Source: an uncultured Oscillospiraceae bacterium
GTDB lineage: Bacteria; Bacillota; Clostridia; Oscillospirales; Oscillospiraceae
Assembly (NCBI GenBank): GCA_910588975.1
Contig: CAJUSE010000004.1
Coordinates: forward strand, 3,790-35,789
Reading direction: 5' to 3'
DNA: 32,000 nucleotides
Of the stretch, positions 19,178 through 30,553 are shown in pieces; the first letter of the stretch is position 1, and each line of letters begins with the position of its first letter. The notes under the pieces were generated by a model that saw nothing but the letters and a program-made list of their open reading frames with translations, ran no database searches and was not told the DNA's origin. A program made the position numbers and the translations under genes.

Positions 19178-19582
19178 GTGAGGATCGGCGCAACAGAACT
19201 TTTGGTGGTGTTTGTGGTGGCCCTTCTGGTCATCGGGCCGGATAAGCTGCCCGCTTTTGCCAAGAAGCTGGGAGAGGCCATGGGTCAGTTCAAGCGCTAT
19301 TCGGACAAGGTGGCCAAGGAGATCCAGGAAACCGTGGTAGAGCCCATGGAGGAGGTCGCCGAACCTATCCGCAAGGCCGTAGAACCCATCGAGGAGATGG
19401 ACAAGACCATCCGCAGCAGCGTGCGGGAGGTGGAGAAGTCCTTCTCGGATATTGGAAAGCCCGCAAAAAAGACCGCCTCTCCGGCCCGGGAGACTGCCGA
19501 GGCTTCGGAGGGCGAAGAAAAACCAGAAGTCACAGACAGCGAAAGCGCTGTGAAAAAGGAAGAGGAGGAGCAACAACAATGA
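19178..19582 (+). CDS. Twin-arginine translocase TatA/E/B family protein, long TatB-like form (copy 1)
   Basis: GTG start. The N-terminus reads MRIGATELLVVFVVALLVIGPDKLPAFAKKLG (TM segment, hinge, amphipathic helix) and is followed by a long acidic tail. Confidence 0.85.
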   Translation: MRIGATELLVVFVVALLVIGPDKLPAFAKKLGEAMGQFKRYSDKVAKEIQETVVEPMEEVAEPIRKAVEPIEEMDKTIRSSVREVEKSFSDIGKPAKKTASPARETAEASEGEEKPEVTDSESAVKKEEEEQQQ

Positions 19583-19764
19583 GATTGGGTACACTTGAAA
19601 TTCTGGCTATTCTGGGCATCGTCCTGCTGGTGTTCGGTCCCACCCAGCTGCCCAAGCTGACCAAGATGTTCGGCAAGAGCGTCAAGAGCTTTAAGGAGGG
19701 CGTGGAGGAGGACAAGTCCACCGCCGACAAGGGGACTGAGGATGGCGACAAAAAGGAAGACTGA
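19579..19764 (+). CDS. tatA: Twin-arginine translocase subunit TatA (copy 1)
   Basis: The product starts MRLGTLEILAILGIVLLVFGPTQLPKLTKMFGKSVKSFKEG. An ATGA overlap links it to the upstream gene. Confidence 0.9.
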   Translation: MRLGTLEILAILGIVLLVFGPTQLPKLTKMFGKSVKSFKEGVEEDKSTADKGTEDGDKKED

Positions 19765-20584
19765 GGCGACTGCCCAGGAAAAGCGGATGAAGCTGACAGG
19801 CCACCTGAAGGAGCTGCGCTCCCGGCTGGTGGTCTGCCTGCTGGTGCTTTTCGTGACCATTATCGTGGGCATCGGCCTGGCTCCCAAGCTGGTGGAGCAC
19901 CTGCTGAACATGGGCAAGGTCTACGGCTATCAGTATGTCTATCTGTCCCCCCAGGAGCTGCTGATGCAATACATGTCGGCGGCACTGGTTTTTGGCATCG
20001 TGGCCACCATGCCCCTGATTCTCTATCAGGTCTGGGCCTTTGCCAAGCCGGGGCTGACCAAGCGGGAGAACCGGGTGTTTTTGTGTGCCCTCATCTTTGG
20101 GACCATCTGCTTCTGCGTGGGTGTCTACTTCGCCTATCAGGTCATGCTGCCCACCATGCTGCTGTTTCTCAGCACGCTGGAAAACAGCGCTGAGGTGGCC
20201 GCCGCCATCTCGGTACAGAATTACATCTCCTTCCTGTTGACCATCTTCATCATCTTCGGCAGCGTGTTTGAGCTGCCCGTGCTGTCGGTGGTGCTGGATG
20301 CCGTGGGTATCCTGAAGGTGAAATGGATGAAGCAGGCCCGACGGTATGTCATTGTGGTCAGTTTCATCGTATCCGCCTTCATCACCCCTCCTGATGTGGT
20401 CAGCCAGGTCATGGTGGCCATCCCTGTTATGGGACTGTATGAGCTGAGCATCATCCTGTGCTCCATCGTGGAAAAGCTGCGGCGGAAAAAGCCCGAGGAG
20501 GATGACGAGGAGAGGGAGGCTTCCGAAAAGGGAGAAGCGTCCCCCGAGAAGGAAGAAGCGTCCCCTGAAAAGAACGAGGAGTAA
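19742..20584 (+). CDS. tatC: Twin-arginine translocase subunit TatC
   Basis: The product has 6 TM segments and TatC motifs (HLKELRSRL, PLILYQVWAFAKPGL, SAFITPPDVVSQ). An alternative start at 19787 is possible. The acidic C-terminal tail contains an EASPEK repeat. Confidence 0.9.
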   Translation: MATKRKTEATAQEKRMKLTGHLKELRSRLVVCLLVLFVTIIVGIGLAPKLVEHLLNMGKVYGYQYVYLSPQELLMQYMSAALVFGIVATMPLILYQVWAFAKPGLTKRENRVFLCALIFGTICFCVGVYFAYQVMLPTMLLFLSTLENSAEVAAAISVQNYISFLLTIFIIFGSVFELPVLSVVLDAVGILKVKWMKQARRYVIVVSFIVSAFITPPDVVSQVMVAIPVMGLYELSIILCSIVEKLRRKKPEEDDEEREASEKGEASPEKEEASPEKNEE

Positions 20585-20588
20585 GTCC

Positions 20589-20620
20589 GCCGCCCCGCTG
20601 GTACCAGCGGGGCGGCTTTT
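20589..20620 (+). terminator. Rho-independent terminator after tatC
   Basis: gccgccccgctgg-tac-ccagcggggcggc followed by tttt. Confidence 0.85.
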
Positions 20621-20635
20621 CGTGCGTTTGGGTCC

Positions 20636-20664
20636 TTTTCATCCGGCGGGCGGTGTGGTAGAAT
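20636..20664 (+). promoter_or_regulatory. Candidate promoter with extended -10 for the NTPase gene
   Basis: TTTTCA, a 17-nt spacer, then TAGAAT, with TGg immediately upstream of the -10. Confidence 0.4.
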
Positions 20665-20693
20665 GGGGGAAAAAACAGAAGGGGGGAGCGGGC

Positions 20694-21221
20694 ATGAAAA
20701 ACAACCTGTTTTTGACCGGAGACCGAAGGGTGGGCAAGAGCACCTGCATCGACCGGGCACTGGAGCAGGTGCGGGGTGAGGTGAGGGGCTTTCGCACTTA
20801 CTTTGCCGACGAGACCAGAGCGCAACTGCTGCTTTCTGACCCGGCGGGGCGACAGACCCAGGTAGCGGCCCGGCGGCGGGCAGAGGGGGGCTTTCAGGTT
20901 TTTGAGGAGGCCTTTGAGGGCTGCGGCGTGGAGCTGCTCCACTCCGGTTGGGAGGCAGATCTGATGCTTATGGATGAGCTGGGCAAGCTGGAGACTGGCT
21001 GCCCCCGGTTCCGCTCTGCCGTGCTGGAGACGCTGGAGCGCCCCGTCCCCGTGCTGGGGGTGCTGCGCCAAGGGGAGGGGGAGTGGCTGGATCTGCTCCA
21101 CCGCCACTCGGCCATAGAGGTGCTCACCGTAACAGAGGACAACCGGGAATGGGTCGGGGAGCAGCTGTCCCGCTGGCTGAGGGAGCTGGGGCTTGTGCCG
21201 GAGATTTGCCCCGGAGTGTAA
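20694..21221 (+). CDS. P-loop nucleoside-triphosphatase (THEP1/NTPase_1-like)
   Basis: ATG at 20694 follows gaaggggggag. Walker A is LTGDRRVGKST and Walker B is LMLMDELG. The product is 175 aa. Confidence 0.65.
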   Translation: MKNNLFLTGDRRVGKSTCIDRALEQVRGEVRGFRTYFADETRAQLLLSDPAGRQTQVAARRRAEGGFQVFEEAFEGCGVELLHSGWEADLMLMDELGKLETGCPRFRSAVLETLERPVPVLGVLRQGEGEWLDLLHRHSAIEVLTVTEDNREWVGEQLSRWLRELGLVPEICPGV

Positions 21222-21326
21222 GCCCGCCTGGCCTTGACGCAGGATTGCCTGAAAGGACTGGCCTCCAGCGCTTTGGCGCAGGTGGGAGATCGGGTCGAAA
21301 ACCCGCAAAAATATCTTGTTAATCTA

Positions 21327-21355
21327 TTGACATTTTCGGCCGAATGGAATAGAAT
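21327..21355 (+). promoter_or_regulatory. Strong candidate promoter for the tat2-AOR operon
   Basis: TTGACA (21327-21332), a 17-nt spacer, then TAGAAT (21350-21355). Confidence 0.65.
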
Positions 21356-21365
21356 ACATATGAAA

Positions 21366-21470
21366 ATTGAATAGTCTCCGAGTAGGGTCGGCCTAAGGAT
21401 AAGCATCTATGGCCGTCCTGCCAGGGCCAGGCCGGAAACGGCATGACCTTCCGTTGTGAAAAGGGGCTTC
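21366..21470 (+). promoter_or_regulatory. Structured 5' leader, candidate Moco/W-co (RF01055-like) riboswitch aptamer, copy R1
   Basis: It shares two conserved blocks with the leader at 27405-27520. These are tgaataNNCTCCGAG (21368-21382) and CCTTCCGTTNTGAAAAGGGGC (21447-21467), with similar spacing (64 vs 68 nt). It contains an internal GNRA hairpin gccg-gaaa-cggc (21431-21442). The class assignment rests on my recollection of the consensus, not on a covariance-model search. Confidence 0.5.
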
Positions 21471-21570
21471 ACACCCGCCGGGCATGACATTTGCGTGCCT
21501 TGGCCCGTTACTTCGTGTGGGACAGCTCTTTTTCAAGGAGAAAGTGCGCCCCATGGAGACAGGGGAAGCT

Positions 21571-21607
21571 GTGGGTGTTTTGGGAAACCGGGACACCTGT
21601 TTTTTTA
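21571..21607 (+). terminator. Weak candidate intrinsic terminator within the tat2 leader
   Basis: gggtgt-(14-nt loop)-acacct followed by g and seven T residues. The stem is short and includes a G-U pair. Confidence 0.3.
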
Positions 21608-21726
21608 CCCATTTTTTCGACAAATTTCGAGGGATTTCCCCGGGAGCGGGGGTCCACAAGACTATTTTGACCTCCTGGCACATAGATTGCCATGAACGGA
21701 TCAGAGGGAGAAAGAGGAGGAGACCC

Positions 21727-22179
21727 ATGAGGATCGGAGCAGTGGAACTGTTGGTGATATTTGCTGTGGCCCTTCTGGTCATCGGACCGGACAAGCTGCC
21801 CGCCTTCGCCAGAAAGCTGGGGGAGGTGCTGGGGCAGTTCAAGGGCTACTCGGATAAGGTGGCCAAGGAGATCCGGGAGACGGTGGTAGAGCCCATGGAG
21901 GAAGTGACCCAGCCCATTCGGGAGGCCATGAAGCCCATCGAGGAAGTGGACAAGACCATCCGCAGCAGTGTGCGGGATGTGGAGAAGTCCTTCTCCGGCA
22001 TCGGCAAGCCCACGAAGAAGCCGGTGTCCCAGCCCGCCGCTCCGGCGGAGGCGGAACAGGCACCCCCTGCGGAGGAGGCCCCCGCACCCCGGCCGGCAGA
22101 TCCGGAGGAAGAAGAGATATTAAGAGAGCTTAAGGAAATTCAGGTCGAGGAAGACCGTATGAAGGAGGAAGAAAAATGA
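21727..22179 (+). CDS. TatA/E/B family protein, long TatB-like form (copy 2)
   Basis: ATG at 21727 follows aaagaggaggag. Over the first 98 aa, 81 positions are identical to copy 1 (hand count). Confidence 0.85.
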   Translation: MRIGAVELLVIFAVALLVIGPDKLPAFARKLGEVLGQFKGYSDKVAKEIRETVVEPMEEVTQPIREAMKPIEEVDKTIRSSVRDVEKSFSGIGKPTKKPVSQPAAPAEAEQAPPAEEAPAPRPADPEEEEILRELKEIQVEEDRMKEEEK

Positions 22180-22358
22180 GATTGGGAACATTGGAGCTCC
22201 TGGCCATCCTGGCCATCGTGCTGGTGGTCTTCGGCCCGTCCCAGCTGCCCAAGCTGACTAAGATGTTTGGCAAGAGCGTGAAAAATTTCAGGGAGGCAGT
22301 GGACGAGACCGACAAGGAGGACACTGCCGACGAGAAGGGCGAGGACGACAAGTCCTGA
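22176..22358 (+). CDS. tatA: Twin-arginine translocase subunit TatA (copy 2)
   Basis: ATGA overlap with the upstream gene. Over the first 44 aa, 36 positions are identical to TatA copy 1 (hand count). Confidence 0.9.
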   Translation: MRLGTLELLAILAIVLVVFGPSQLPKLTKMFGKSVKNFREAVDETDKEDTADEKGEDDKS

Positions 22359-22450
22359 ATGTGGTTTAAGCCGCTTGTCAAAGCGCTTAAATAAAGAGAA
22401 AGCACAGGATGAAACGGCCTGTGCGAAATGAAAAGAGGAGGTCATCAATT

Positions 22451-23077
22451 ATGGCGAAAGAGAACTTTGCGAGCGCAGACATGACACGCCGCCAATTCCT
22501 GAAGATCTCGGGAAAGTCACTGGTAGGTCTGACCCTGTCTGCCTCATTCCTCTCCCTGGTGGGTTGTACCCAGGACCAGGTGGATGACGGCGATGTCATG
22601 GTCTGGGCTCTGCCCCAGGGCCTGCTTGTGGTCAACCAGGATAAGTGCACCGGCTGCCAGCGCTGCGAGATCAACTGCACCCTGGTCAACGACGGCGCTG
22701 TGTCCAGCTACATGTCCCGTGTGAAGGTGACCCGGAACCTGTTCTCCAGCAGAAACGGCTCCGGACTGTATACCGACGACCACTGGACCTACTTCCCCGA
22801 CACCTGCCGGCAGTGCGCCGACCCCGCCTGCGCTAAGGCCTGCCCCAAGGGCGCCATCTATGCCGACGAGAACGGCGTGAAGAAGGTGGACGAGGAGAAG
22901 TGTATCGGCTGCGGCGCTTGTACCGAGGCTTGCCCCTGGCACATGCCCACCGTGAACCCCATCACCAAGAAGTCGTCCAAGTGCATCCAGTGCGGCGCTT
23001 GCGTGGCCGGCTGCCCCTCGGGCGCTCTGTCCATCATCCCCTGGGAAGAGGTCGCTGCGGCCGCCCAGGCAGTCTAA
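22451..23077 (+). CDS. Tat-signal, lipobox-bearing 4x[4Fe-4S] ferredoxin-like subunit (DmsB/YdhX-like)
   Basis: ATG at 22451 follows gaggagg. The Tat motif TRRQFLK lies at 22484-22504 and the lipobox LVGC has its Cys codon at 22565-22567. Four cluster motifs are visible: CTGCQRCEINC, CRQCADPACAKACP, CIGCGACTEACP and CIQCGACVAGCP. Confidence 0.85.
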   Translation: MAKENFASADMTRRQFLKISGKSLVGLTLSASFLSLVGCTQDQVDDGDVMVWALPQGLLVVNQDKCTGCQRCEINCTLVNDGAVSSYMSRVKVTRNLFSSRNGSGLYTDDHWTYFPDTCRQCADPACAKACPKGAIYADENGVKKVDEEKCIGCGACTEACPWHMPTVNPITKKSSKCIQCGACVAGCPSGALSIIPWEEVAAAAQAV

Positions 23078-23094
23078 TATAGGGAGGTATAGAT

Positions 23095-25257
23095 ATGTCT
23101 GCACAGAACGGTATCAACGGCTGGGCCGGTACGATCCTGCGGGTCAACCTGACCACCGGCTCCATCACCCGGGAGGACACCCTCCCCAAGTATAAGCCCT
23201 TTGTGGGCGGCATGGGCATCGGCTACAAGATCATCTGGGACGAGGTCCCCATGGAGACCGAGCCCTTCAGCGAGGAGGCCAAGGTGGTCTTTAGCGTCGG
23301 CCCCCTGACCGGCTCCGGCGTGCCCTGCTCCGGCCGGACCACCATCACCCTGCTGTCCAACTGGTCCAAGGGCAAGTCCATCCTGGACGCCCACATGGGC
23401 GGCCATCTGGCCCACGGCATCAAGTATGCCGGCTATGATGCCATTGTCATCGAGGGCAAGGCCGACAAGCCTGTCTACGTGAAGATCGACGACGACAAGG
23501 TCACCATCGAGGATGCCTCCCACGTCTGGGGCAAGGGCACCTTCGAGACCAATAAGATCCTGGCCGGCGAGGCCGGCCCTGAGTTCGACGTGGCCTCCAT
23601 CGGCCCCGCCGGCGAGCACCTGCTGGGCTACTCCACCATCAACACCGCCTTCGGTAACTCTGGCGGCGCCGGTGTTGGCGGCGCCTTGGGTGCCAAGAAC
23701 ATGAAGGCTATTGTGGTCCGGGGCACCGGCGCTGTGAAGATCGCCGATCCCGTGGAGCACAAGAACCTGTGCGACTATATGATCCGGGACCTGGTTGGCG
23801 GCAACAACAACCACAACGTCCCCTCCCGTCCCCAGTCCTGGGCCGAGTACACCTCCACGGTGAAGAACCGTTGGCAGGGCGGCCCCGGCGTGGTGTGGGG
23901 CGCCGCTCCCTCCGGCCCCATCGACACCGGCGAGCAGCCCTCCGGCGACATCCAGGTGGCTGCTTACCGTGCCGTGAAGGGCGTGTTCGATTACGGTGAC
24001 ATCGTCCAGAAGTACATCGTCAAGTCCGGCGGCTGCGCCTCCTGCCCGGTCCGCTGCTACTCCGAGTACGAGGTGGACGTGCTGGCTGATTACGACCTGC
24101 CCACCAAGGTGTCCAACACCTGCGTGCCCTCCGGCAGCGTGCCCACCGCTTTCTACGCCAAGGGCTGCATGCATGACTTCAAGGAGGAGGGCGACTCCAA
24201 GATCGTCATCGGCCTCCACGGTGCTTACGTCATGGACGATCTGGGTCTGTGGGAGGACTACGCCAACCTGGGCCGTGATTTCGCCTGGTGCCTGGAGAAC
24301 GGTGTCTTTGAGAAGAAGCTGCCCAAGGAGGAGTACGACTCCATTCCCTGGCAGCTGATGAAGGACGGCGATCCCCGCTGGCTGGACGAGATCATGGGCC
24401 GCATCGCCCGCAAGGAGGGCGAGATCAGCATCATCGGCGAGGGCAGCTACTTCTTCTACAAGGCCTGGGGCCTGGATGATGCCGCCAAGAACGAGTGGGG
24501 CGTCAACATGTACGATAAGATCGGCGGCAACAACAACGTCACCTACAACGGCTTCCCCAAGCATCACTCCAGCGAGGATGGCTGGCAGTCCGGCCTGCTC
24601 TACAACGTGATGTATAACCGGGACTGTATGGTCCACGTGCTGACCAACTTCGTCCGTTCCGGCTCTCCCTTCGAGGAGGTCATTAAGCCGGTGCTGGAGA
24701 GCTACTTCGGCGAGGGCTGTGTGGACGCTCCCAAGGCCTACACCCCCATCAACGAGAACAAGGTCAAGCTGGCCAAGTGGTGCTTCCTGGAGAAGCAGTG
24801 GGCGGACTCCGCCACCCTGTGCGACTGGATGTACCCCATGACCCTGTCCACCTCTCCCGCCCGGAAGTACGTGGGCGACATCGAGCTGGACGCTAAGTAC
24901 ATGACCGCCGTCACCGGCGAGAACTGGACCATGGACGACATCTTCGAGGCCATGGAGCGCATCAGCGCCATGCTGCGGGCTATGACCGCCATCTCCTTCA
25001 AGATCCACGAGGGCGAGACCAACCTGCGCACCAGCCACGACCGGGTGCCCGATTGGGTGTTCGACAAGGATCCAGACTTCAAGGCCTTTGAGAAGGGCAC
25101 CGACAAGATGGATCGGGATGACTGGGAGAAGTCCCTGACCATGTTCTACGAGGCCATGGGTTACAGCACCGAGACCGGCATCCCCACCCGGGAGACCCTG
25201 GAGCGGCTGGATCTGGCCGATGTGGCCGACAGGCTGGAGGAGTACGAGCTCATCTAA
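23095..25257 (+). CDS. Aldehyde:ferredoxin oxidoreductase (AOR) family tungsto/molybdopterin enzyme, YdhV-like, with no signal peptide
   Basis: The AOR_N pattern is visible (GWAGTILRVNLTTGSI...VGGMGIGYKII...GPLTGSGVPCSGR...IGPAGEHL...GAKNMKAIVVRGTG). A CxxCxxxC [4Fe-4S] motif (CASCPVRC) lies at 24034-24057. The product is 720 aa. Confidence 0.85.
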   Translation: MSAQNGINGWAGTILRVNLTTGSITREDTLPKYKPFVGGMGIGYKIIWDEVPMETEPFSEEAKVVFSVGPLTGSGVPCSGRTTITLLSNWSKGKSILDAHMGGHLAHGIKYAGYDAIVIEGKADKPVYVKIDDDKVTIEDASHVWGKGTFETNKILAGEAGPEFDVASIGPAGEHLLGYSTINTAFGNSGGAGVGGALGAKNMKAIVVRGTGAVKIADPVEHKNLCDYMIRDLVGGNNNHNVPSRPQSWAEYTSTVKNRWQGGPGVVWGAAPSGPIDTGEQPSGDIQVAAYRAVKGVFDYGDIVQKYIVKSGGCASCPVRCYSEYEVDVLADYDLPTKVSNTCVPSGSVPTAFYAKGCMHDFKEEGDSKIVIGLHGAYVMDDLGLWEDYANLGRDFAWCLENGVFEKKLPKEEYDSIPWQLMKDGDPRWLDEIMGRIARKEGEISIIGEGSYFFYKAWGLDDAAKNEWGVNMYDKIGGNNNVTYNGFPKHHSSEDGWQSGLLYNVMYNRDCMVHVLTNFVRSGSPFEEVIKPVLESYFGEGCVDAPKAYTPINENKVKLAKWCFLEKQWADSATLCDWMYPMTLSTSPARKYVGDIELDAKYMTAVTGENWTMDDIFEAMERISAMLRAMTAISFKIHEGETNLRTSHDRVPDWVFDKDPDFKAFEKGTDKMDRDDWEKSLTMFYEAMGYSTETGIPTRETLERLDLADVADRLEEYELI

Positions 25258-25274
25258 GCAAAAGGAGAATTTTC

Positions 25275-25943
25275 ATGGCGTTTTTTGGAAGAAGAAAGCC
25301 GGGGTTTTCCAAGGAGGAGACCGTGGATCCCCGGACCCTTTCAGACGTCGTGGTTGAGGAGTATGGGAACAAATCTGGCACCACCGCCGATGAGGCGGTG
25401 GTGCCGGCTCCTGTTCAGGAGGAAGGACCCCTGCCGGCCAATATGGCCCAGGCCCTGGCCCAATTCGTTCGCAACCACAGCGCTGCCGGGATGCTGGTCT
25501 CGCTGAACCAGCTGACCGAAGAGGATCCCACCATCCCCACCCTGTTTGAGCAGATGCGGGCTGATCCCGCCTGCGGCGACATCGCCCTGCGCAAGACGGC
25601 GAAGGATACCTATCTCTATCAGGAGGGCTCCATGAGCGAGCTCTACCTGATGCTCAACACGCTGGTGCTGGATGACGATGCCAAGAATACCATTGTCACT
25701 CTGGTGCGCTACAACAGCAAGACCTACCCCTCTGTGACTCCCTATGACTACTTCACCCGCCCCCCCTTCTCCATGCCCATGGAGCGCATTGAGACGGCAA
25801 TTCAGGACATTTTGGACAGCGGTGAACCGGCGGATATCGCCAGGGTGGTCTCATCGGAGGGGAATTCCTACCTCTATTCCACGGACCATATCACGCCGGA
25901 GTATGCCAAGGGTCTGGCCGAGTTCGTGGAAGACAACGACTGA
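25275..25943 (+). CDS. Hypothetical acidic protein, paralog A (possibly YdhW-like, judged from operon position and size)
   Basis: The 222-aa product has no TM segment or signal peptide. Its C-terminal 150 aa or so align with the next ORF (CGDI/CQDI, YLY/YFY, TLV, VRYNSKTYP/VRFHAEKYP, TPYDYF/TPFTYF, EYAKGLAEF/KYGKALADF). Confidence 0.5.
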   Translation: MAFFGRRKPGFSKEETVDPRTLSDVVVEEYGNKSGTTADEAVVPAPVQEEGPLPANMAQALAQFVRNHSAAGMLVSLNQLTEEDPTIPTLFEQMRADPACGDIALRKTAKDTYLYQEGSMSELYLMLNTLVLDDDAKNTIVTLVRYNSKTYPSVTPYDYFTRPPFSMPMERIETAIQDILDSGEPADIARVVSSEGNSYLYSTDHITPEYAKGLAEFVEDND

Positions 25944-25958
25944 GAAGGAGGGTCCCCC

Positions 25959-26633
25959 ATGGCGCCTGAGGAGAAGATCAACAATCCCTTTTTTGAGGGC
26001 GAGAAGATCCCGGATGTGGAAGGGCGGCCGGATCTGCTGGAGTATCTGGAGTCCCTGCCCGAGGTGGAGGACACCATGCCCCCCATTCCAGAGAAGGAGC
26101 CTGAGCCCGAGCCGGAGTTCACCCCGGAGGAGGAGCTTGCCAACGTGATCCGGCGAGCCTCCGGCCGGAGCCGGCTGGTGAAAAAAAGCCAGATCCTGCA
26201 GGAGATCACCAGGGGTGAGGAGCTTTTGGGCCTTATGCTGGCCAGTGAGAGCTGCCAGGATATCCGCAGCAAAAGCGGCAAGGCTGAGATCTATTTTTAC
26301 TCCTCCCAGCACATGACGGACAACTATGCCATGATTGCCACCCTGGTGGAGGAGGCGGACGGCCCGGCCACCATTGCGCAGATGGTCCGCTTCCACGCTG
26401 AGAAGTATCCCGCCGCCACCCCCTTTACCTATTTTTTCGGCACGCCCTATAACTGGACGAGGGAGCAGTTCATGCTGGCCCTGGAACAGCTGCGGAAAAT
26501 TCCGGATTACGAGGACATCGTGGAGGTCCACGCCTACGATGATACCCCCTTCCTGATCTCCACCAAGTTTGTGACGGAGAAATACGGCAAGGCGCTGGCC
26601 GACTTCGGGCAGGAGAGCACGGAGAGCATGTAA
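25959..26633 (+). CDS. Hypothetical acidic protein, paralog B (possibly YdhW-like)
   Basis: The 224-aa product has a Pro/Glu-rich N-terminus (EKEPEPEPEFTPEEE). Its C-terminal domain is paralogous to 25275-25943. Confidence 0.5.
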   Translation: MAPEEKINNPFFEGEKIPDVEGRPDLLEYLESLPEVEDTMPPIPEKEPEPEPEFTPEEELANVIRRASGRSRLVKKSQILQEITRGEELLGLMLASESCQDIRSKSGKAEIYFYSSQHMTDNYAMIATLVEEADGPATIAQMVRFHAEKYPAATPFTYFFGTPYNWTREQFMLALEQLRKIPDYEDIVEVHAYDDTPFLISTKFVTEKYGKALADFGQESTESM

Positions 26634-26655
26634 AAACTACAGCAAGGAGAAACCC

Positions 26656-27360
26656 ATGGACGAACAGACGGCCCTGCCCATTCAGACCGTGACCGGGCTC
26701 CAGACCACGGCGGAGGGGGAGACCCTCCCTGTGGAGATGGCACTGCCTGTGGAGCACAAAATCGACATTTACGTGGACGGTGAGCTTTACCGCCCGGTGG
26801 TCTGCACCCCCACCATGCTGCCGCAGCTGGTGCTGGGGCGGCTGATTACCGACGGCGTGATCTGGGGCATAGAGGAGGTGGCCCAATGGGCCATCTCCCC
26901 GGCGGGGGACAGAGCCGACGTGGCGCTATCCCACAAGCCCCGGCCGGAAAGGGAGAGGCGGGATGCCCCTGCTGTTACGGACGGTATGATCCGCACAGCC
27001 CAGGCCAAGCTGGCCGAGGGAAATCCCCTTTACAAAGCTACCCGGGGGGTCCACTGCTGTATCCTGATCCACGGGGGCGAGCTCCGCTATGTCACCGAGG
27101 ATCTGTCCCGCCACAGCGCCCTGGACAAGGCGGTGGGAAGTGCCCTTTTGGCCGGGGTGGAGCTGGGGGAGTGTGTGCTTTTCTCCAGTGGCCGGGTGCC
27201 GACGGATATGCTCCAAAAGAGCATCAACGCCGGGATCCGGGCTCTGATCGCCAAGGCCATTCCCACCTATCAAAGTGTAGAGCTGGCCCGAAAGCAGGGC
27301 ATCACCCTCATCTGTGACGCCCGGGGGGGCAAGTACGCCCAGTTTTCCCCTTTGACTTGA
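26656..27360 (+). CDS. fdhD: FdhD-family protein (formate dehydrogenase accessory sulfurtransferase-like)
   Basis: RBS: aaggaga. FdhD-like blocks are visible (IDIYVDGELYRPVVCTPTMLPQLVLGRLITDGVI, EDLSRHSALDKAVG, SSGRVPTDMLQKSINAGIRALIAKAIPT). The product is short (234 aa) and contains no CxxC motif. Confidence 0.7.
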   Translation: MDEQTALPIQTVTGLQTTAEGETLPVEMALPVEHKIDIYVDGELYRPVVCTPTMLPQLVLGRLITDGVIWGIEEVAQWAISPAGDRADVALSHKPRPERERRDAPAVTDGMIRTAQAKLAEGNPLYKATRGVHCCILIHGGELRYVTEDLSRHSALDKAVGSALLAGVELGECVLFSSGRVPTDMLQKSINAGIRALIAKAIPTYQSVELARKQGITLICDARGGKYAQFSPLT

Positions 27361-27404: not shown

Positions 27405-27520
27405 TGAATATGCTCCGAGCCGGCTGTACCTACGGGAGGGAACTCCTACGGTCCCCCGGCCACTGGGTCACATGGAAAACCATATGGCCTTCCGTTTTGA
27501 AAAGGGGCAGCTTGCATATC
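27405..27520 (+). promoter_or_regulatory. Structured 5' leader, candidate Moco/W-co riboswitch aptamer, copy R2
   Basis: It has the same blocks as R1: tgaatatgCTCCGAG (27405-27419) and CCTTCCGTTTTGAAAAGGGGC (27488-27508). A closing helix atatgc (27408-27413) pairs with gcatat (27514-27519). Internal hairpins are ggag-ggaa-ctcc (27435-27446) and ggcca...atgg-aaaa-ccat...tggcc (27458-27489). Confidence 0.5.
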
Positions 27521-27563
27521 GGGGACGCCCCTTTGGAGCGCCCCGGAATGGGTTGTACGCTCT

Positions 27564-27597
27564 GGACTCCTTTTCTTCGGAAAAGGAGTCCTTTTTT
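27564..27597 (+). terminator. Strong intrinsic terminator forming the expression platform of leader R2
   Basis: ggactcctttt-cttcgg-aaaaggagtcc followed by tttttt, about 50 nt upstream of the permease ATG. Confidence 0.8.
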
Positions 27598-27648
27598 GCT
27601 TATTTTGAGCCCTTCTGTCAGGCAGGGGGCGGGGAAAGGAGAGGGAAC

Positions 27649-28662
27649 ATGGAGGAAAAGCGAGCAAACCGCACCCTGTTGGCTCTGGGGCTTGCCCTGG
27701 CGGCTCTGGTGGCCCTGTCCTTCACCCTGGGCCGGTATGGTTTGGGGCTGGGAGAGCTGTGGCGTGTGCTCACCGGCACCCCCCTGGGCCTGCCGGCCAG
27801 CCAGATGACCCCCCAGCAAACAGTTGTGTGGAACATCCGCCTGCCCCGCATCCTGCTGTGCTGCCTGGTGGGGGCTTGCCTTGCCTCGGCAGGGGCCTGC
27901 TATCAGGGGGTGTTCCAGAATGCCATGGCCTCTCCCGACCTGCTGGGCTGCTCCCAGGGGGCTGCCTTTGGGGCGGCTCTGGCCATCCTGCTGGGGGCCG
28001 GCACCGCCGGGATCACCGCCTCGGCCTTCCTGTTCAGCCTGGTGACAGTGGCCCTTGTCTACCTCATTGGCCAGTATGCCCCTGGGCAGAAGGTGCTCAA
28101 TTTGGTGCTGGGGGGCGTGATGATCGGCTCCCTCTTCTCGGCGGGGACCTCCTTTATCAAGCTGGTGGCCGACCCGGGAGACCAGCTGCCCGCCATCACT
28201 TACTGGCTCATGGGCTCTCTGGCCGGGGCCAGGATGGAGACCGTACTGCTGGCTCTGGTGCCCATGCTGTTGGGCCTTGTGCCCCTGTTCCTGCTGCGCT
28301 GGAAGATCAACCTGCTGGTGATGGGGGAGGAGGAGGCCCGGGCCATGGGGGTGCATACCGACCGGCTGCGGCTGGTGGTGGTGCTGTGCGCCACCCTCAT
28401 TACGGCATCGGCGGTGTCAGTGAGCGGCCTCATTGGCTGGGTGGGGCTGGTGGTGCCCCACCTGTCCCGGATGCTGGTGGGCAGCAATTACAAGCACCTG
28501 CTGCCCTGCTCGGCCCTCTTTGGGGCGGGGTTCCTGCTCCTCACCGACAACGTCAGCCGAAATCTCTTTACCGCCGAGCTGCCCATCGGCATCCTGACGG
28601 CCTGGATCGGCGCTCCCTTTTTCATCTATCTCATGCTGCATCAGGGGAGGGGAGAGACATGA
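27649..28662 (+). CDS. FecCD/BtuC-family ABC transporter permease
   Basis: ATG at 27649 follows aaaggagaggg. The product has typical FecCD blocks (IRLPRILLCCLVGACLASAGACYQGVFQN, GIPMGILTA-like LPIGILTAWIGAPFFIYL). Confidence 0.85.
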   Translation: MEEKRANRTLLALGLALAALVALSFTLGRYGLGLGELWRVLTGTPLGLPASQMTPQQTVVWNIRLPRILLCCLVGACLASAGACYQGVFQNAMASPDLLGCSQGAAFGAALAILLGAGTAGITASAFLFSLVTVALVYLIGQYAPGQKVLNLVLGGVMIGSLFSAGTSFIKLVADPGDQLPAITYWLMGSLAGARMETVLLALVPMLLGLVPLFLLRWKINLLVMGEEEARAMGVHTDRLRLVVVLCATLITASAVSVSGLIGWVGLVVPHLSRMLVGSNYKHLLPCSALFGAGFLLLTDNVSRNLFTAELPIGILTAWIGAPFFIYLMLHQGRGET

Positions 28663-29456
28663 TAGAGGTCAAAGACCTGTGCTTTTCCTACCGCAGCCGG
28701 GAGGTACTCAAGGGGGTCTCCTTCCAGGCAAGGGAGGGTACGGTCAGCTTCGTGCTGGGGGCCAACGGAGCGGGCAAGACCACCCTGTTCCGCTGCCTGC
28801 TGGGCCTCTACAGGCCCAGCGCCGGGGCCGTGCTGCTGGATGGAGAGGACCTGACCAGGCTGCCGCCCCCCCAGCTGGCCAAACGGCTGGCCTATATTCC
28901 CCAGAGCCATGCCCCCGTTTTTGATTTCACCGTGCTGGACATGGTGCTCATGGGCACCAACCACGACCTTGGGACCTTTCGGTCCCCGGGGGCGGAGGAG
29001 CGCCGCCGGGCCATGTCCGCTCTGGAGCGGGTAGGGGCCCAGGAGCTGACCCACCGGGTGTTCCGCCGGCTCAGCGGGGGGGAGCAGCAGCTGGTCCTCA
29101 TTGCCCGGGCCCTGGCCCAGGGCTCCCGGGTGCTGGTTATGGACGAACCCACTGCCAATCTGGATTACGGCAATCAGCTTCTGGTGCTGGAGTGCGTCTG
29201 CCGGCTGGCAGAGGAGGGCTACACCGTCCTTATCTCCTCCCACGACCCCCAGCACGCCCTGTGGTATGCCCACCGGGTGCTGGCGCTGGACGGGGGCGTG
29301 GTGGTGGCCGACGGTCCCGCCGGGGAGGTGCTGGACGGCCCGCTGCTCCAACAGCTCTATGGCGTGGAGGCAGAGTTTGCGCAGGCGAGCTGCGGCCGGG
29401 TCATTGTCCCCAGGCAAATCAAAACGCACAAGGTGTATAAGGAGGAAATGGAATGA
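28659..29456 (+). CDS. ABC transporter ATP-binding protein (FepC/BtuD-like)
   Basis: ATGA overlap with the permease gene. Walker A is GANGAGKTT, the ABC signature is LSGGEQQ and Walker B is VLVMDEP. Confidence 0.9.
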   Translation: MIEVKDLCFSYRSREVLKGVSFQAREGTVSFVLGANGAGKTTLFRCLLGLYRPSAGAVLLDGEDLTRLPPPQLAKRLAYIPQSHAPVFDFTVLDMVLMGTNHDLGTFRSPGAEERRRAMSALERVGAQELTHRVFRRLSGGEQQLVLIARALAQGSRVLVMDEPTANLDYGNQLLVLECVCRLAEEGYTVLISSHDPQHALWYAHRVLALDGGVVVADGPAGEVLDGPLLQQLYGVEAEFAQASCGRVIVPRQIKTHKVYKEEME

Positions 29457-30553
29457 AAAGAACGGTCTCTATGCTTCTGGCCCTGACCTTGGGCCTCACC
29501 CTGGTGGGCTGCAGCGGCCAGAGGGGGGAGAAAAACCCGGATCCCGAGGTCAGCACCCCTGTTGAGGAGAGCCAGACCACCGAGCCCCGGAGCTTTACCG
29601 ACTCCCTGGGCCGGACGGTGGAGCTGCCCGCCCAGATCGACCACATCGCCGTCAGCGCCGCCATGGCCCAGCGGGTGGTGGCCCCCCTGGCCGCTGATAA
29701 GATGATCGGGCGCTCCGGGGAGTTCACCGAGGCGGAAAGGGAGTATTACACCGACGCCTATGCCGAGCTACCCGTGGTGGGCGAGTTCTACGGCAAGGAG
29801 ACCGGGGATCTGGAGGTGCTGCTCTCCTCCGGCGCCCAGGTGGTCATCGACGTAGGTACGCCTAAGGACGGTCTGGCCGAGGACCTGGACGCCCTCACCC
29901 GGCAGACGGGCATCCCCTTCGTCCACATTTCCTTCTACGCCGATGCCATGGATGAGGTATATATCAAGCTGGGCGAGCTGCTGAACATGCCCGATGAAGC
30001 CGAGAAGCTGGCGGCCTACTGCCGGGAGACCTATGATATGGTCCAGGCCATCGCCGACAAGGCCGAGAAGGCCAACATCCTCTATGTGGTGGGGGATAAG
30101 GGGCTCAATGTCATCGCCAGGGGCAGCTACCACGCCGGGGTCATCGACATGCTGACCAACAACCTGGCCGTGGTGGATAACCCCGTCTCCAAGGGCTTTG
30201 GCAACGAGGTGGACATGGAGCAGATCCTGCTCTGGGACCCGGATATCATCTTCTTCTCTCCTGAGAGCATCTATGATACCGTGGCCGATGATCCCCTCTA
30301 TCAGCAGGTCACCGCCATCAGGAACGGGGCCTACTATAAGGTCCCCCTTGGCCCGGACAACTGGATGGGCTTTCCCCCTTCGGTCCAGCAGCTGCTGGGT
30401 ATGCAGTGGATGGCCAAGGTCCTCTATCCCGACCTGGCCGACTACGACCTCTACGAGCGGGTAAATGAGTTCTACACCCTGTTCTACCATAAGCCCCTGT
30501 CCCAGGAGGAATTCGATAAGCTGGTCGCCGGCTCTCTGAGCCCGAAAGCCTGA
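29453..30553 (+). CDS. ABC transporter substrate-binding lipoprotein (Peripla_BP_2 / cluster A, BtuF/FhuD-like)
   Basis: ATGA overlap with the ATPase gene. The Sec/SPII signal with lipobox reads MKRTVSMLLALTLGLTLVGC. The 366-aa product sits downstream of the FecCD permease and ATPase genes. Confidence 0.8.
   Translation: MKRTVSMLLALTLGLTLVGCSGQRGEKNPDPEVSTPVEESQTTEPRSFTDSLGRTVELPAQIDHIAVSAAMAQRVVAPLAADKMIGRSGEFTEAEREYYTDAYAELPVVGEFYGKETGDLEVLLSSGAQVVIDVGTPKDGLAEDLDALTRQTGIPFVHISFYADAMDEVYIKLGELLNMPDEAEKLAAYCRETYDMVQAIADKAEKANILYVVGDKGLNVIARGSYHAGVIDMLTNNLAVVDNPVSKGFGNEVDMEQILLWDPDIIFFSPESIYDTVADDPLYQQVTAIRNGAYYKVPLGPDNWMGFPPSVQQLLGMQWMAKVLYPDLADYDLYERVNEFYTLFYHKPLSQEEFDKLVAGSLSPKA

Follow-up and report, generated by a model that had tools for sequence, protein, structure and literature searches.

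We analysed two adjacent genes, here called W1 and W2, in a 32,000-nucleotide stretch of DNA from an uncultured Oscillospiraceae bacterium (GenBank assembly GCA_910588975.1, contig CAJUSE010000004.1; the whole stretch is referred to as the window). They lie between the gene of a YdhV-type enzyme of the AOR family upstream and that of an FdhD homologue downstream, which is where an earlier annotation made from the letters alone (hereafter the sequence-only reading) had placed them. Judged by homology and gene context, W1 and W2 are copies of YdhW, accessory proteins of the YdhV-clade (Class V, or clade 41) molybdenum/tungsten (Mo/W)-pterin oxidoreductases. The features of the two genes are the following.

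25275..25943, + strand: W1, YdhW-family paralog 1, an open reading frame (ORF) of 222 aa; matches NF007411 at 4.8e-30; PF27264 is annotated on the identical protein P0001; AlphaFold2 mean predicted local distance difference test score (pLDDT) 84.7
25959..26633, + strand: W2, YdhW-family paralog 2, an ORF of 224 aa; matches NF007411 at 2.2e-30; PF27264 is annotated on the identical protein P0007; AlphaFold2 mean pLDDT 88.5
25281..25307, + strand: N-terminal motif FFGRRKPGF in the disordered tail of W1, kept in most clostridial homologues; pLDDT <50; not in W2
25443..25937, + strand: predicted tandem winged-helix domain of W1, aa 57-221 (AlphaFold2 pLDDT 94-98; Foldseek)
26028..26072, + strand: tail motif PDLLEYLESLPEVED of W2, a predicted short amphipathic acidic helix (AlphaFold2 helix 26-32, pLDDT 73-84), kept in most clostridial homologues; not in W1
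26124..26624, + strand: predicted tandem winged-helix domain of W2, aa 56-222 (AlphaFold2 pLDDT 93-98; Foldseek)

Both ORFs were recovered at exactly the lengths and positions given before, on the same strand with a gap of 15 nt, and each follows a Shine-Dalgarno sequence (AAAAGGAGA for W1, GAAGGAGGG for W2). When aligned by BLASTP, their products are 30% identical (51% positives) across 161 residues without a gap (E 2e-25), a similarity far above chance that identifies them on alignment grounds as true paralogs with a common C-terminal domain, as proposed in the sequence-only reading. Five of the six conserved blocks that it listed for this domain occur as written; the remaining one, VR[YF]..K.YP, does not, the lysine being off by one between W1 (VRYNSKTYP) and W2 (VRFHAEKYP). 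The description of the N-termini likewise stood in part: they cannot be aligned to one another, yet neither is plain low-complexity sequence, and each carries a different short motif that is conserved among homologues. Both proteins are acidic (isoelectric point, pI, 4.39 for W1 and 4.50 for W2) and have no signal peptide or transmembrane segment, the maximum 19-residue Kyte-Doolittle mean being 0.66 and 0.78, respectively, again as described earlier. Each has one non-invariant cysteine, and there are no cysteine motifs. The two genes share a reading frame, and the interval 25941-25961 between them consists of TGA plus five codons (EGGSP); with one change in that stop codon they would be joined into a four-winged-helix protein like the long members of the family.

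The profile NF007411 ('YdhW family putative oxidoreductase system protein') matches W1 with 105.0 bits and W2 with 106.2 bits, over profile positions 39/40 to 205/208 of 215. Since these scores are about half the equivalog cutoff of 203 bits, W1 and W2 appear from the profile match as clear homologues that are too diverged to be equivalogs of the enterobacterial YdhW. The Pfam family PF27264 (PF27264.1, YdhW_C) is annotated on the 100% identical database copies of W1 (P0001) and W2 (P0007) and on all the homologues; in a Pfam set without PF27264 neither protein had a match at E <=0.1, PF02613 included. By BLASTP against YdhW (b1672), taken from the ydhYVWXUT region of Escherichia coli K-12, W2 is 34% identical over 167 aa and W1 33% over 169 aa (E 1e-19 each). 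The suggestion that these proteins match YdhW, which had been drawn from position and size, thus turns out to reflect true homology. Because the PF27264 annotation, the pairwise homology and the synteny all point the same way, we assign W1 and W2 to the YdhW family as diverged members by sequence; the family is already catalogued and has no function assigned, and the literature searched contains no functional study of YdhW. It is of modest size, with 615 clusters (at 50% identity) at E <=1e-3 and 521 at <=1e-10 in an exhaustive profile search. A third homologue search with a diverse alignment returned mostly Citrobacter and Escherichia entries and added little, and the AOR gene of the window had no match by blastn in E. 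coli genomes.

E. coli YdhW is homologous to W1 and W2 over the whole C-terminal domain of about 165 aa; its gene also directly follows the ydhV-type AOR gene downstream of ydhY, and the protein is likewise acidic and signal-less with a variable tail. There are also several differences. YdhW is single-copy in E. coli, whereas two tandem copies are present here; its tail holds a decayed KRQWLQ in place of the FGRRKPGF and DLLEYLxSLPEVED motifs; the E. coli operon contains ydhX, ydhU and ydhT, whereas none of these is present in the operon of the window, which has fdhD and twin-arginine translocation (Tat) genes instead; and E. coli YdhY has a single arginine in its signal, whereas the YdhY of the window has a canonical twin arginine.

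Co-occurrence with AOR/YdhV orthologs had been set beforehand as decisive for the proposed link to the enzyme, and it holds in both directions. A pattern scan for W with one genome per species returned 62 loci (all from Clostridia/Bacillota owing to the pattern used), and among the 58 with at least 1 kb of upstream sequence, ydhY-ydhV were found immediately upstream on the same strand in 56, always in the order Y-V-W. One exception is an orphan W after an unrelated 777-aa ORF (L005), and the other (L062) is an incomplete W that lies within another ORF at the end of a contig, probably a chimera. Conversely, metagenomes were scanned with a YdhV alignment as query, which gave 80 loci with YdhV proteins 38-59% identical to that of the window. 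A W-family ORF was present in 59 of the 63 with at least 700 nt of downstream sequence. The remaining four comprise a locus with only 740 nt of room (L078), two with a truncated W start (L113 and L140) and one with a transposase after ydhV (L142). W is thus essentially an obligate companion of the Tat-targeted YdhY/YdhV enzymes. In three of these loci (L113:3352-3765, L140:2732-3082 and L142:8432-10402) the gene directly after an intact ydhV is either a W truncated close to its beginning or, in place of W, a transposase-like ORF; such loci are either decaying operons or chimeric assemblies. In one locus group with 42% identical YdhV (L126:10670-11725, L132:8584-9714), W is encoded on the opposite strand, at a distance of a few kb from ydhV instead of directly after it.

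The W gene is embedded in a recurrent gene set. The order Y-V-W-FdhD-TatA-TatC was found in L071 with a tail-less W of 184 aa, and AOR-W-FdhD-TatA-TatA-TatC-TatA in L066; FdhD and TatA/TatC genes recur in the operon even with tail-less W proteins of 181-184 aa. In proteobacteria (L064, L152 and L154) the order is MoaA-Y-V-W-X-U. Every non-enterobacterial lineage examined has a twin-arginine motif in YdhY. Pairwise identities to the window proteins were 66% for Y, 59% for V and 43% for W in L003, and 71%, 69% and 35-44% in L004, so that W, judged by identity, diverges faster than Y and V.

In the window itself, the region 19178-27360 is one same-strand cluster running from Tat genes through an NTPase gene and a Tat pair to Y, V, W1, W2 and fdhD. 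The genes other than W1 and W2 are as follows.

19178..20584, + strand: Tat set 1, consisting of a tatB-like gene (19178-19582), tatA (19579-19764) and tatC (19742-20584); PF02416, PF00902
20694..21221, + strand: THEP1-like P-loop NTPase (NTPase_1, PF03266, 1.5e-22)
21723..22358, + strand: Tat set 2, a duplicated tatB-like gene and tatA; PF02416
22409..23077, + strand: YdhY-type 4x[4Fe-4S] subunit with Tat signal TRRQFLKISG..., which ends in LVGC; NF007382 254 bits (cutoff 213), Fer4 families
23095..25257, + strand: YdhV-type AOR-family catalytic subunit of 720 aa, no signal peptide; PF02730, PF01314; NF007354 869.5 bits (cutoff 868)
26656..27360, + strand: FdhD-family sulfurtransferase/cofactor chaperone homologue; PF02634 1.2e-42; TIGR00129 127 bits (below cutoff 141)

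YdhY begins ...MTRRQFLKISGKSLVGLTLSASFLSLVGC, a canonical twin-arginine signal with a lipobox-like LVGC at its end, and its twin arginine is conserved across the related loci; the assumption of a Tat-exported partner made in the sequence-only reading is therefore borne out for the iron-sulfur (FeS) subunit. The full signal region (22409-22530, TRRQFLKISGKSLVGLTLSASFLSLVGC), with the Tat motif followed by the lipobox-like LVGC, suggests that YdhY may be exported through Tat and serve as a lipoprotein anchor in a monoderm. Not all loci have the lipobox, GC[ST]Q being present in about half of the related ones and LGV[TS] in the others. Tat genes adjoin ydhY in most related loci. The tat locus of the window contains two pairs of direct repeats 2.55 kb apart (19174-19473/21723-22022 with 82% nucleotide identity, and 19566-19710/22163-22307 with 80%), and the two tatB-like/tatA copies flank tatC and the NTPase gene. 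The closest relatives (L001 and L002), by contrast, have one divergently oriented set, and the tat locus has thus been rearranged and partly duplicated here.

The start of the NTPase gene at 20694 is inferred from the onset of the Pfam match (ORF residue 68), the ORF being listed from 20502. PF03266 homologues are found directly beside W or Tat genes in 11 of the 62 related loci (e.g., L023, L024, L031, L043-L045, L052, L056 and L057), and this NTPase may, from its gene context, be a further recurrent accessory gene of the ydh system. FdhD is a sulfurtransferase for formate dehydrogenases; its gene, which directly follows W2 here, turns up repeatedly in ydh loci from several phyla (L066, L071 and L154 as well as many from metagenomes), and this recurrence hints that the YdhV cofactor might need sulfuration. 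After fdhD on the same strand (27472-30553) are genes for a FecCD permease, an ABC ATPase and a Peripla_BP_2 protein, forming an importer of the iron-siderophore/cobalamin type and not of the tungstate/molybdate type (TupABC/ModABC). In related loci it had weak ABC ATPase matches only (22-35% identity) and one FecCD-permease match, in L014. An SLH-domain protein is also encoded downstream of the cluster, and the genes further upstream (transporters, glycosyltransferases, an aminotransferase) are unrelated. The closest loci are those of a Pseudoflavonifractor metagenome-assembled genome (MAG) and of Vermiculatibacterium agrestimuris, with YdhV proteins 84-85% identical to that of the window.

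Structures of W1 and W2 were predicted by AlphaFold2 with family alignments and compared by Foldseek against the PDB, the 50 best matches being listed for each model. By DSSP, both models consist of two winged-helix units of the order helix-strand-helix-helix-strand-strand, with a helix between them and a C-terminal helix, and the domain pLDDT exceeds 93. In W1 the first unit comprises helices 57-70, 77-83 and 87-96 and strands 103-107 and 112-116, the linking helix spans 122-132, the second unit comprises helices 136-150, 157-161 and 169-182 and strands 188-192 and 198-202, and the C-terminal helix spans 208-221. The internal repeat is visible in the sequence as well, W1 160-219 aligning with E. 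coli YdhW 64-122 (E 2e-6). The first 50 or so residues are disordered in both models, except for a short helix of W2 over DLLEYLES (pLDDT 73-84). W1 and W2 are thus predicted to be tandem winged-helix proteins with a disordered acidic N-terminal tail. Neither model had a PDB match at Foldseek E <=1e-3, and PDB sequence searches with each protein and with the family profile gave nothing above noise (best E 0.014, in the acidic tail). The top structural matches are weak (E 3e-3 for W1 and 1.1e-2 for W2, TM-score about 0.3, probability 0.93-0.99), but the lists are consistent and are headed by tandem winged-helix adaptors, namely ESCRT-II subunits, the SelB C-terminus, ScpB, MukE, RPC34/RPC62 and MAGE.

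Proteins of this kind (ScpB, MukE, Vps22/25/36, RPC34/RPC62, the SelB C-terminus and MAGE) are non-enzymatic docking modules for proteins or peptides and commonly occur as dimers or paired paralogs. W1 and W2 resemble them in having two such consecutive units; at E 3e-3 to 0.1 and 9-16% identity the likeness is one of fold class only and not of homology, and none of these adaptors partners a redox enzyme or a secretion pathway. From the models we infer that the winged-helix module of W may serve as a protein or peptide docking device. Membership in the TorD/DmsD/NarJ family was rejected because an alpha/beta tandem winged helix stands against an all-helical fold and there is no sequence match; no TorD-type chain was among the 50 best Foldseek matches listed per model, and the earlier impression that the fold is unlike that family proved right.

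A winged helix also raises the question of whether W is a DNA-binding regulator of its own operon, as this fold class is rich in transcription factors and MecI/BlaI, ArsR/SmtB and MarR are among the lower-ranking Foldseek matches. The charge of the proteins led us to reject this reading, which we consider very improbable. Across the YdhW family the pI is 4.2-5.7, the exceptions being five members (5.9-6.4) and a truncated protein (9.5); the domains alone have a pI of 4.35 (W1) and 4.95 (W2), with D+E exceeding K+R in both as an argument from composition; and the helices at the recognition positions of W2 (GEELLGLMLA and REQFMLALEQLR) are without basic residues. Furthermore, the top structural matches are protein-binding tandem winged-helix proteins, and a position locked right after the catalytic gene in every lineage is not expected of a regulator.

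The tails differ between the two proteins in a way that is informative about their history. Single-copy clostridial homologues (217-306 aa) have an N-terminal peptide M-L-F-G-R-[RK]-K-P-G-F, then a variable acidic linker that ends in D-L-L-E-Y-L-x-S-L-P-E-V-E-D, and then the winged-helix domain. W1 has the first motif (MAFFGRRKPGF) but not the second, whereas W2 has the second (RPDLLEYLESLPEVED) but not the first. Tandem W pairs were also found in L001, L002 and L004 (a Christensenellales MAG). L004 shows the same partition in the same order, copy 1 starting with MPLFGRRKPGF and copy 2 with MKLFSRNKPAEEKPELIDYLESLPEV, where the first motif is decayed ('MKLFSRNKP') and the second, after it, is intact. 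In a neighbour-joining tree of the W domain, RR-only proteins fall into one clade and DLL-only proteins into another; because of these clades and the same split in L004, the sequences suggest one older duplication followed by complementary motif loss that has been stably kept. A tail is absent altogether from many members of the family (170-190 aa), which implies that the core function would reside in the winged-helix module and that the tails would be lineage-specific add-ons. Some members (P0079, P0087, P0093, P0150 and P0156) are 350-480 aa long and have three or four winged-helix units in one chain. The W unit seems to work in multiples.

Twin-arginine peptides are not restricted to clostridial W tails. 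In the proteobacterial Y-V-W-X-U operons (L064:5165-8702, L152:515-4010, L154:2178-5708 and E. coli, L063), YdhY has a single arginine (GLTR[LQK]EFLR) and YdhX has a canonical signal; the proteobacterial W tail carries a Tat-consensus-like D[LM][SG]RRR[LFI][LF], with RRR[FL][LF] in the first three loci and no hydrophobic stretch after it, and in E. coli and Citrobacter this peptide has decayed to KRQWLQ or KRHWLQ. On comparison, W tails repeatedly carry a twin-arginine peptide that has no hydrophobic h-region behind it. In W1, GRRKPGF occupies residues 5-11 and is followed by charged residues, with a tail hydropathy maximum of <=0.3. W was rejected as a Tat substrate, because no h-region follows the twin arginine of W1 and W2 has no such motif. 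A hydrophobic N-terminus was found in 4 of 174 family representatives; the two that were looked up (P0078 and P0173) are on contigs of about 1 kb without context and were set aside as a sign of exported W.

These peptides bring up the possibility that W is a Tat-targeting adaptor, with the tail giving a twin-arginine peptide in trans to TatBC while the winged-helix module holds the cargo, and with W1 doing the targeting and W2 something else. FGRRKPGF does start W1 and most clostridial homologues, the proteobacterial peptide is near the Tat consensus S/T-R-R-x-F-L-K in just those operons where YdhY has one arginine (TR[LQK]EFLR), and dedicated Tat genes adjoin the operon. We nevertheless regard such an adaptor as quite unlikely: tail-less members of 170-190 aa keep the Y-V-W-FdhD-Tat context, so that the motif cannot be the core function; the clostridial YdhY already has a perfect TRRQFLK signal; the clostridial RRKPGF is off consensus after the arginines; and the canonical signal of the proteobacterial YdhX could carry the complex there. 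We also know of no precedent for a Tat-targeting adaptor that supplies an RR peptide in trans. A related and bolder proposal, which we hold to be improbable though a little less so, is that YdhW represents a new winged-helix class of paired Tat accessory factor, in which the tail RR peptide would be shown in trans to the Tat receptor or a proofreading site, the winged-helix module would hold the signal-less YdhV, and the jobs would here be shared out, the twin-arginine tail going to W1 and the acidic helix tail to W2.

More than 10% of the tungsten/molybdenum AOR family belongs to the YdhV clade (Class V), whose enzymes are frequent in gut bacteria, and no substrate, purified holoenzyme or maturation factor has been identified for them (PMC13328260, PMC9103625); in particular, no Mo cofactor chaperone is known for YdhV (PMC9103625). 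A 2026 paper on Class V tungsten oxidoreductases calls the function of the third gene, subunit or not, unknown, and for this reason omitted the Cetobacterium somerae W gene from the expression construct (PMC13328260). In this only attempted purification of a non-E. coli member, the tagged L subunit, expressed without W, was recovered without S and inactive, and it co-purified with the cysteine desulfurase IscS (PMC13328260). The 'W/X' gene of that system (CsWOR41) is the third gene of an L-S-W operon encoding a Class V tungsten oxidoreductase, with fdhD and tatAE/tatC nearby as in the window; moeA is near it but was not seen in the window, and its W is single-copy and is likened to W1/W2 by published gene order, not by sequence (PMC13328260).

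Against this background, the reading we favour, with a probability of roughly 0.42 and by analogy with other systems, is that W is a cytoplasmic assembly and export escort for the Tat-exported YdhY/YdhV pair. Made in the cytoplasm, W would use the winged-helix module as a docking surface to hold the signal-less YdhV together with the Tat-signal-bearing YdhY while the pterin cofactor and the FeS clusters are completed, FdhD being encoded nearby; it would then pass YdhV and YdhY, once assembled, to the dedicated Tat translocase next to them. In doing so W would perform, on a different fold, the job that system-specific maturation chaperones do for other Tat-exported molybdoenzymes. The short linear motifs of the tails (the twin-arginine peptide FGRRKPGF and the acidic helix DLLEYLxSLPEVED) might touch other machinery, and the old tandem duplication would have divided them between W1 and W2 as a division of labour. 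Because the motifs are split between the copies, the working unit here would probably be a W1/W2 heterodimer, corresponding to two identical chains or to one chain with three or four winged-helix units in relatives.

Redox enzyme maturation proteins (TorD/DmsD/NarJ, and also NapD, HyaE/HybE and FdhE) couple cofactor loading or assembly to export, and private chaperone genes often lie between the catalytic and membrane modules, as in narGHJI, serABDC and ddhABDC; ydhW has the same position in ydhYVWXUT as narJ, serD and ddhD have in their operons. W shares the features of this class in being predicted to be cytoplasmic (no signal peptide or transmembrane segment), cofactor-less and encoded with a Tat-dependent cofactor enzyme, often, as for the class, between the genes for the catalytic subunit and the membrane module. 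The likeness to these small, acidic, cytoplasmic proteins is one of proposed role only; to the all-helical TorD-type proteins W has no relation in sequence or fold. A system-specific escort would provide the kind of factor that YdhV is not known to have. The recovery of inactive L without S when W was absent is consistent with the lack of an assembly step, but this is a single observation without controls.

Several points weigh against the escort. According to PMC13328260, which cites Reschke 2019, YdhV-type large subunits take up Mo or W without co-expressed W; on that account W is not required for insertion of the metal cofactor, in difference to the redox enzyme maturation proteins, and it is unlikely to be the obligatory cofactor-insertion factor that the sequence-only reading had considered. 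Near-100% linkage and a fixed gene position are equally typical of a stoichiometric subunit, and growth to three or four winged-helix units looks more scaffold- than chaperone-like. Complementary motif loss is the sole ground on which we infer the heterodimer, and the tree behind the suggested single old duplication is of low resolution.

Some of these points lead to the main alternative, namely that W is a third structural subunit, which would join YdhV and YdhY in the cytoplasm, hitchhike on the Tat signal of YdhY and remain part of the mature enzyme for scaffolding or docking, with W1 and W2 in two non-equivalent positions. We consider this possible but doubtful. In its favour are the nearly obligate two-way linkage and the invariant place right after the catalytic gene, the presence of three to four winged-helix units in some lineages, and the fact that the structural neighbours (ESCRT-II, ScpB, MukE and RPC34) are permanent adaptor subunits that act in pairs; the system has also been written as a YdhYVWXUT complex or as CsWOR41LSW (PMC4257093, PMC13328260), and the purification of L without S was made with W omitted. 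Disordered, highly acidic tails of variable length (50-140 residues), on the other hand, are unusual for a Tat cargo or an extracytoplasmic monoderm protein, W has no cofactor or catalytic motif and diverges faster than Y and V, and just the 4 of 174 representatives mentioned above have a hydrophobic N-terminus. Taken together, the tight linkage and the scaffold-like relatives fit subunit and escort equally, whereas a subunit is harder to reconcile with acidic tails that are long and variable and with the faster divergence of W.

The YdhW family itself was already catalogued; what appears to be new with respect to the literature searched is the tandem winged-helix fold, the two-way linkage statistics, the two tail motifs with their split between paralogs, and the twin-arginine-like tail peptides. 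As an essentially obligate partner with a predicted docking fold that travels with FdhD and Tat genes, W makes a case for its co-expression (here W1 and W2 together) with the enzyme, and the question of chaperone or subunit thereby becomes directly testable. The natural W1/W2 split is at the same time a convenient system to separate the roles of the two tail motifs. To our knowledge, there are no Tat-linked maturation proteins known in monoderm bacteria; should W prove to be an export escort, these proteins would gain a new fold, and would do so in monoderms.

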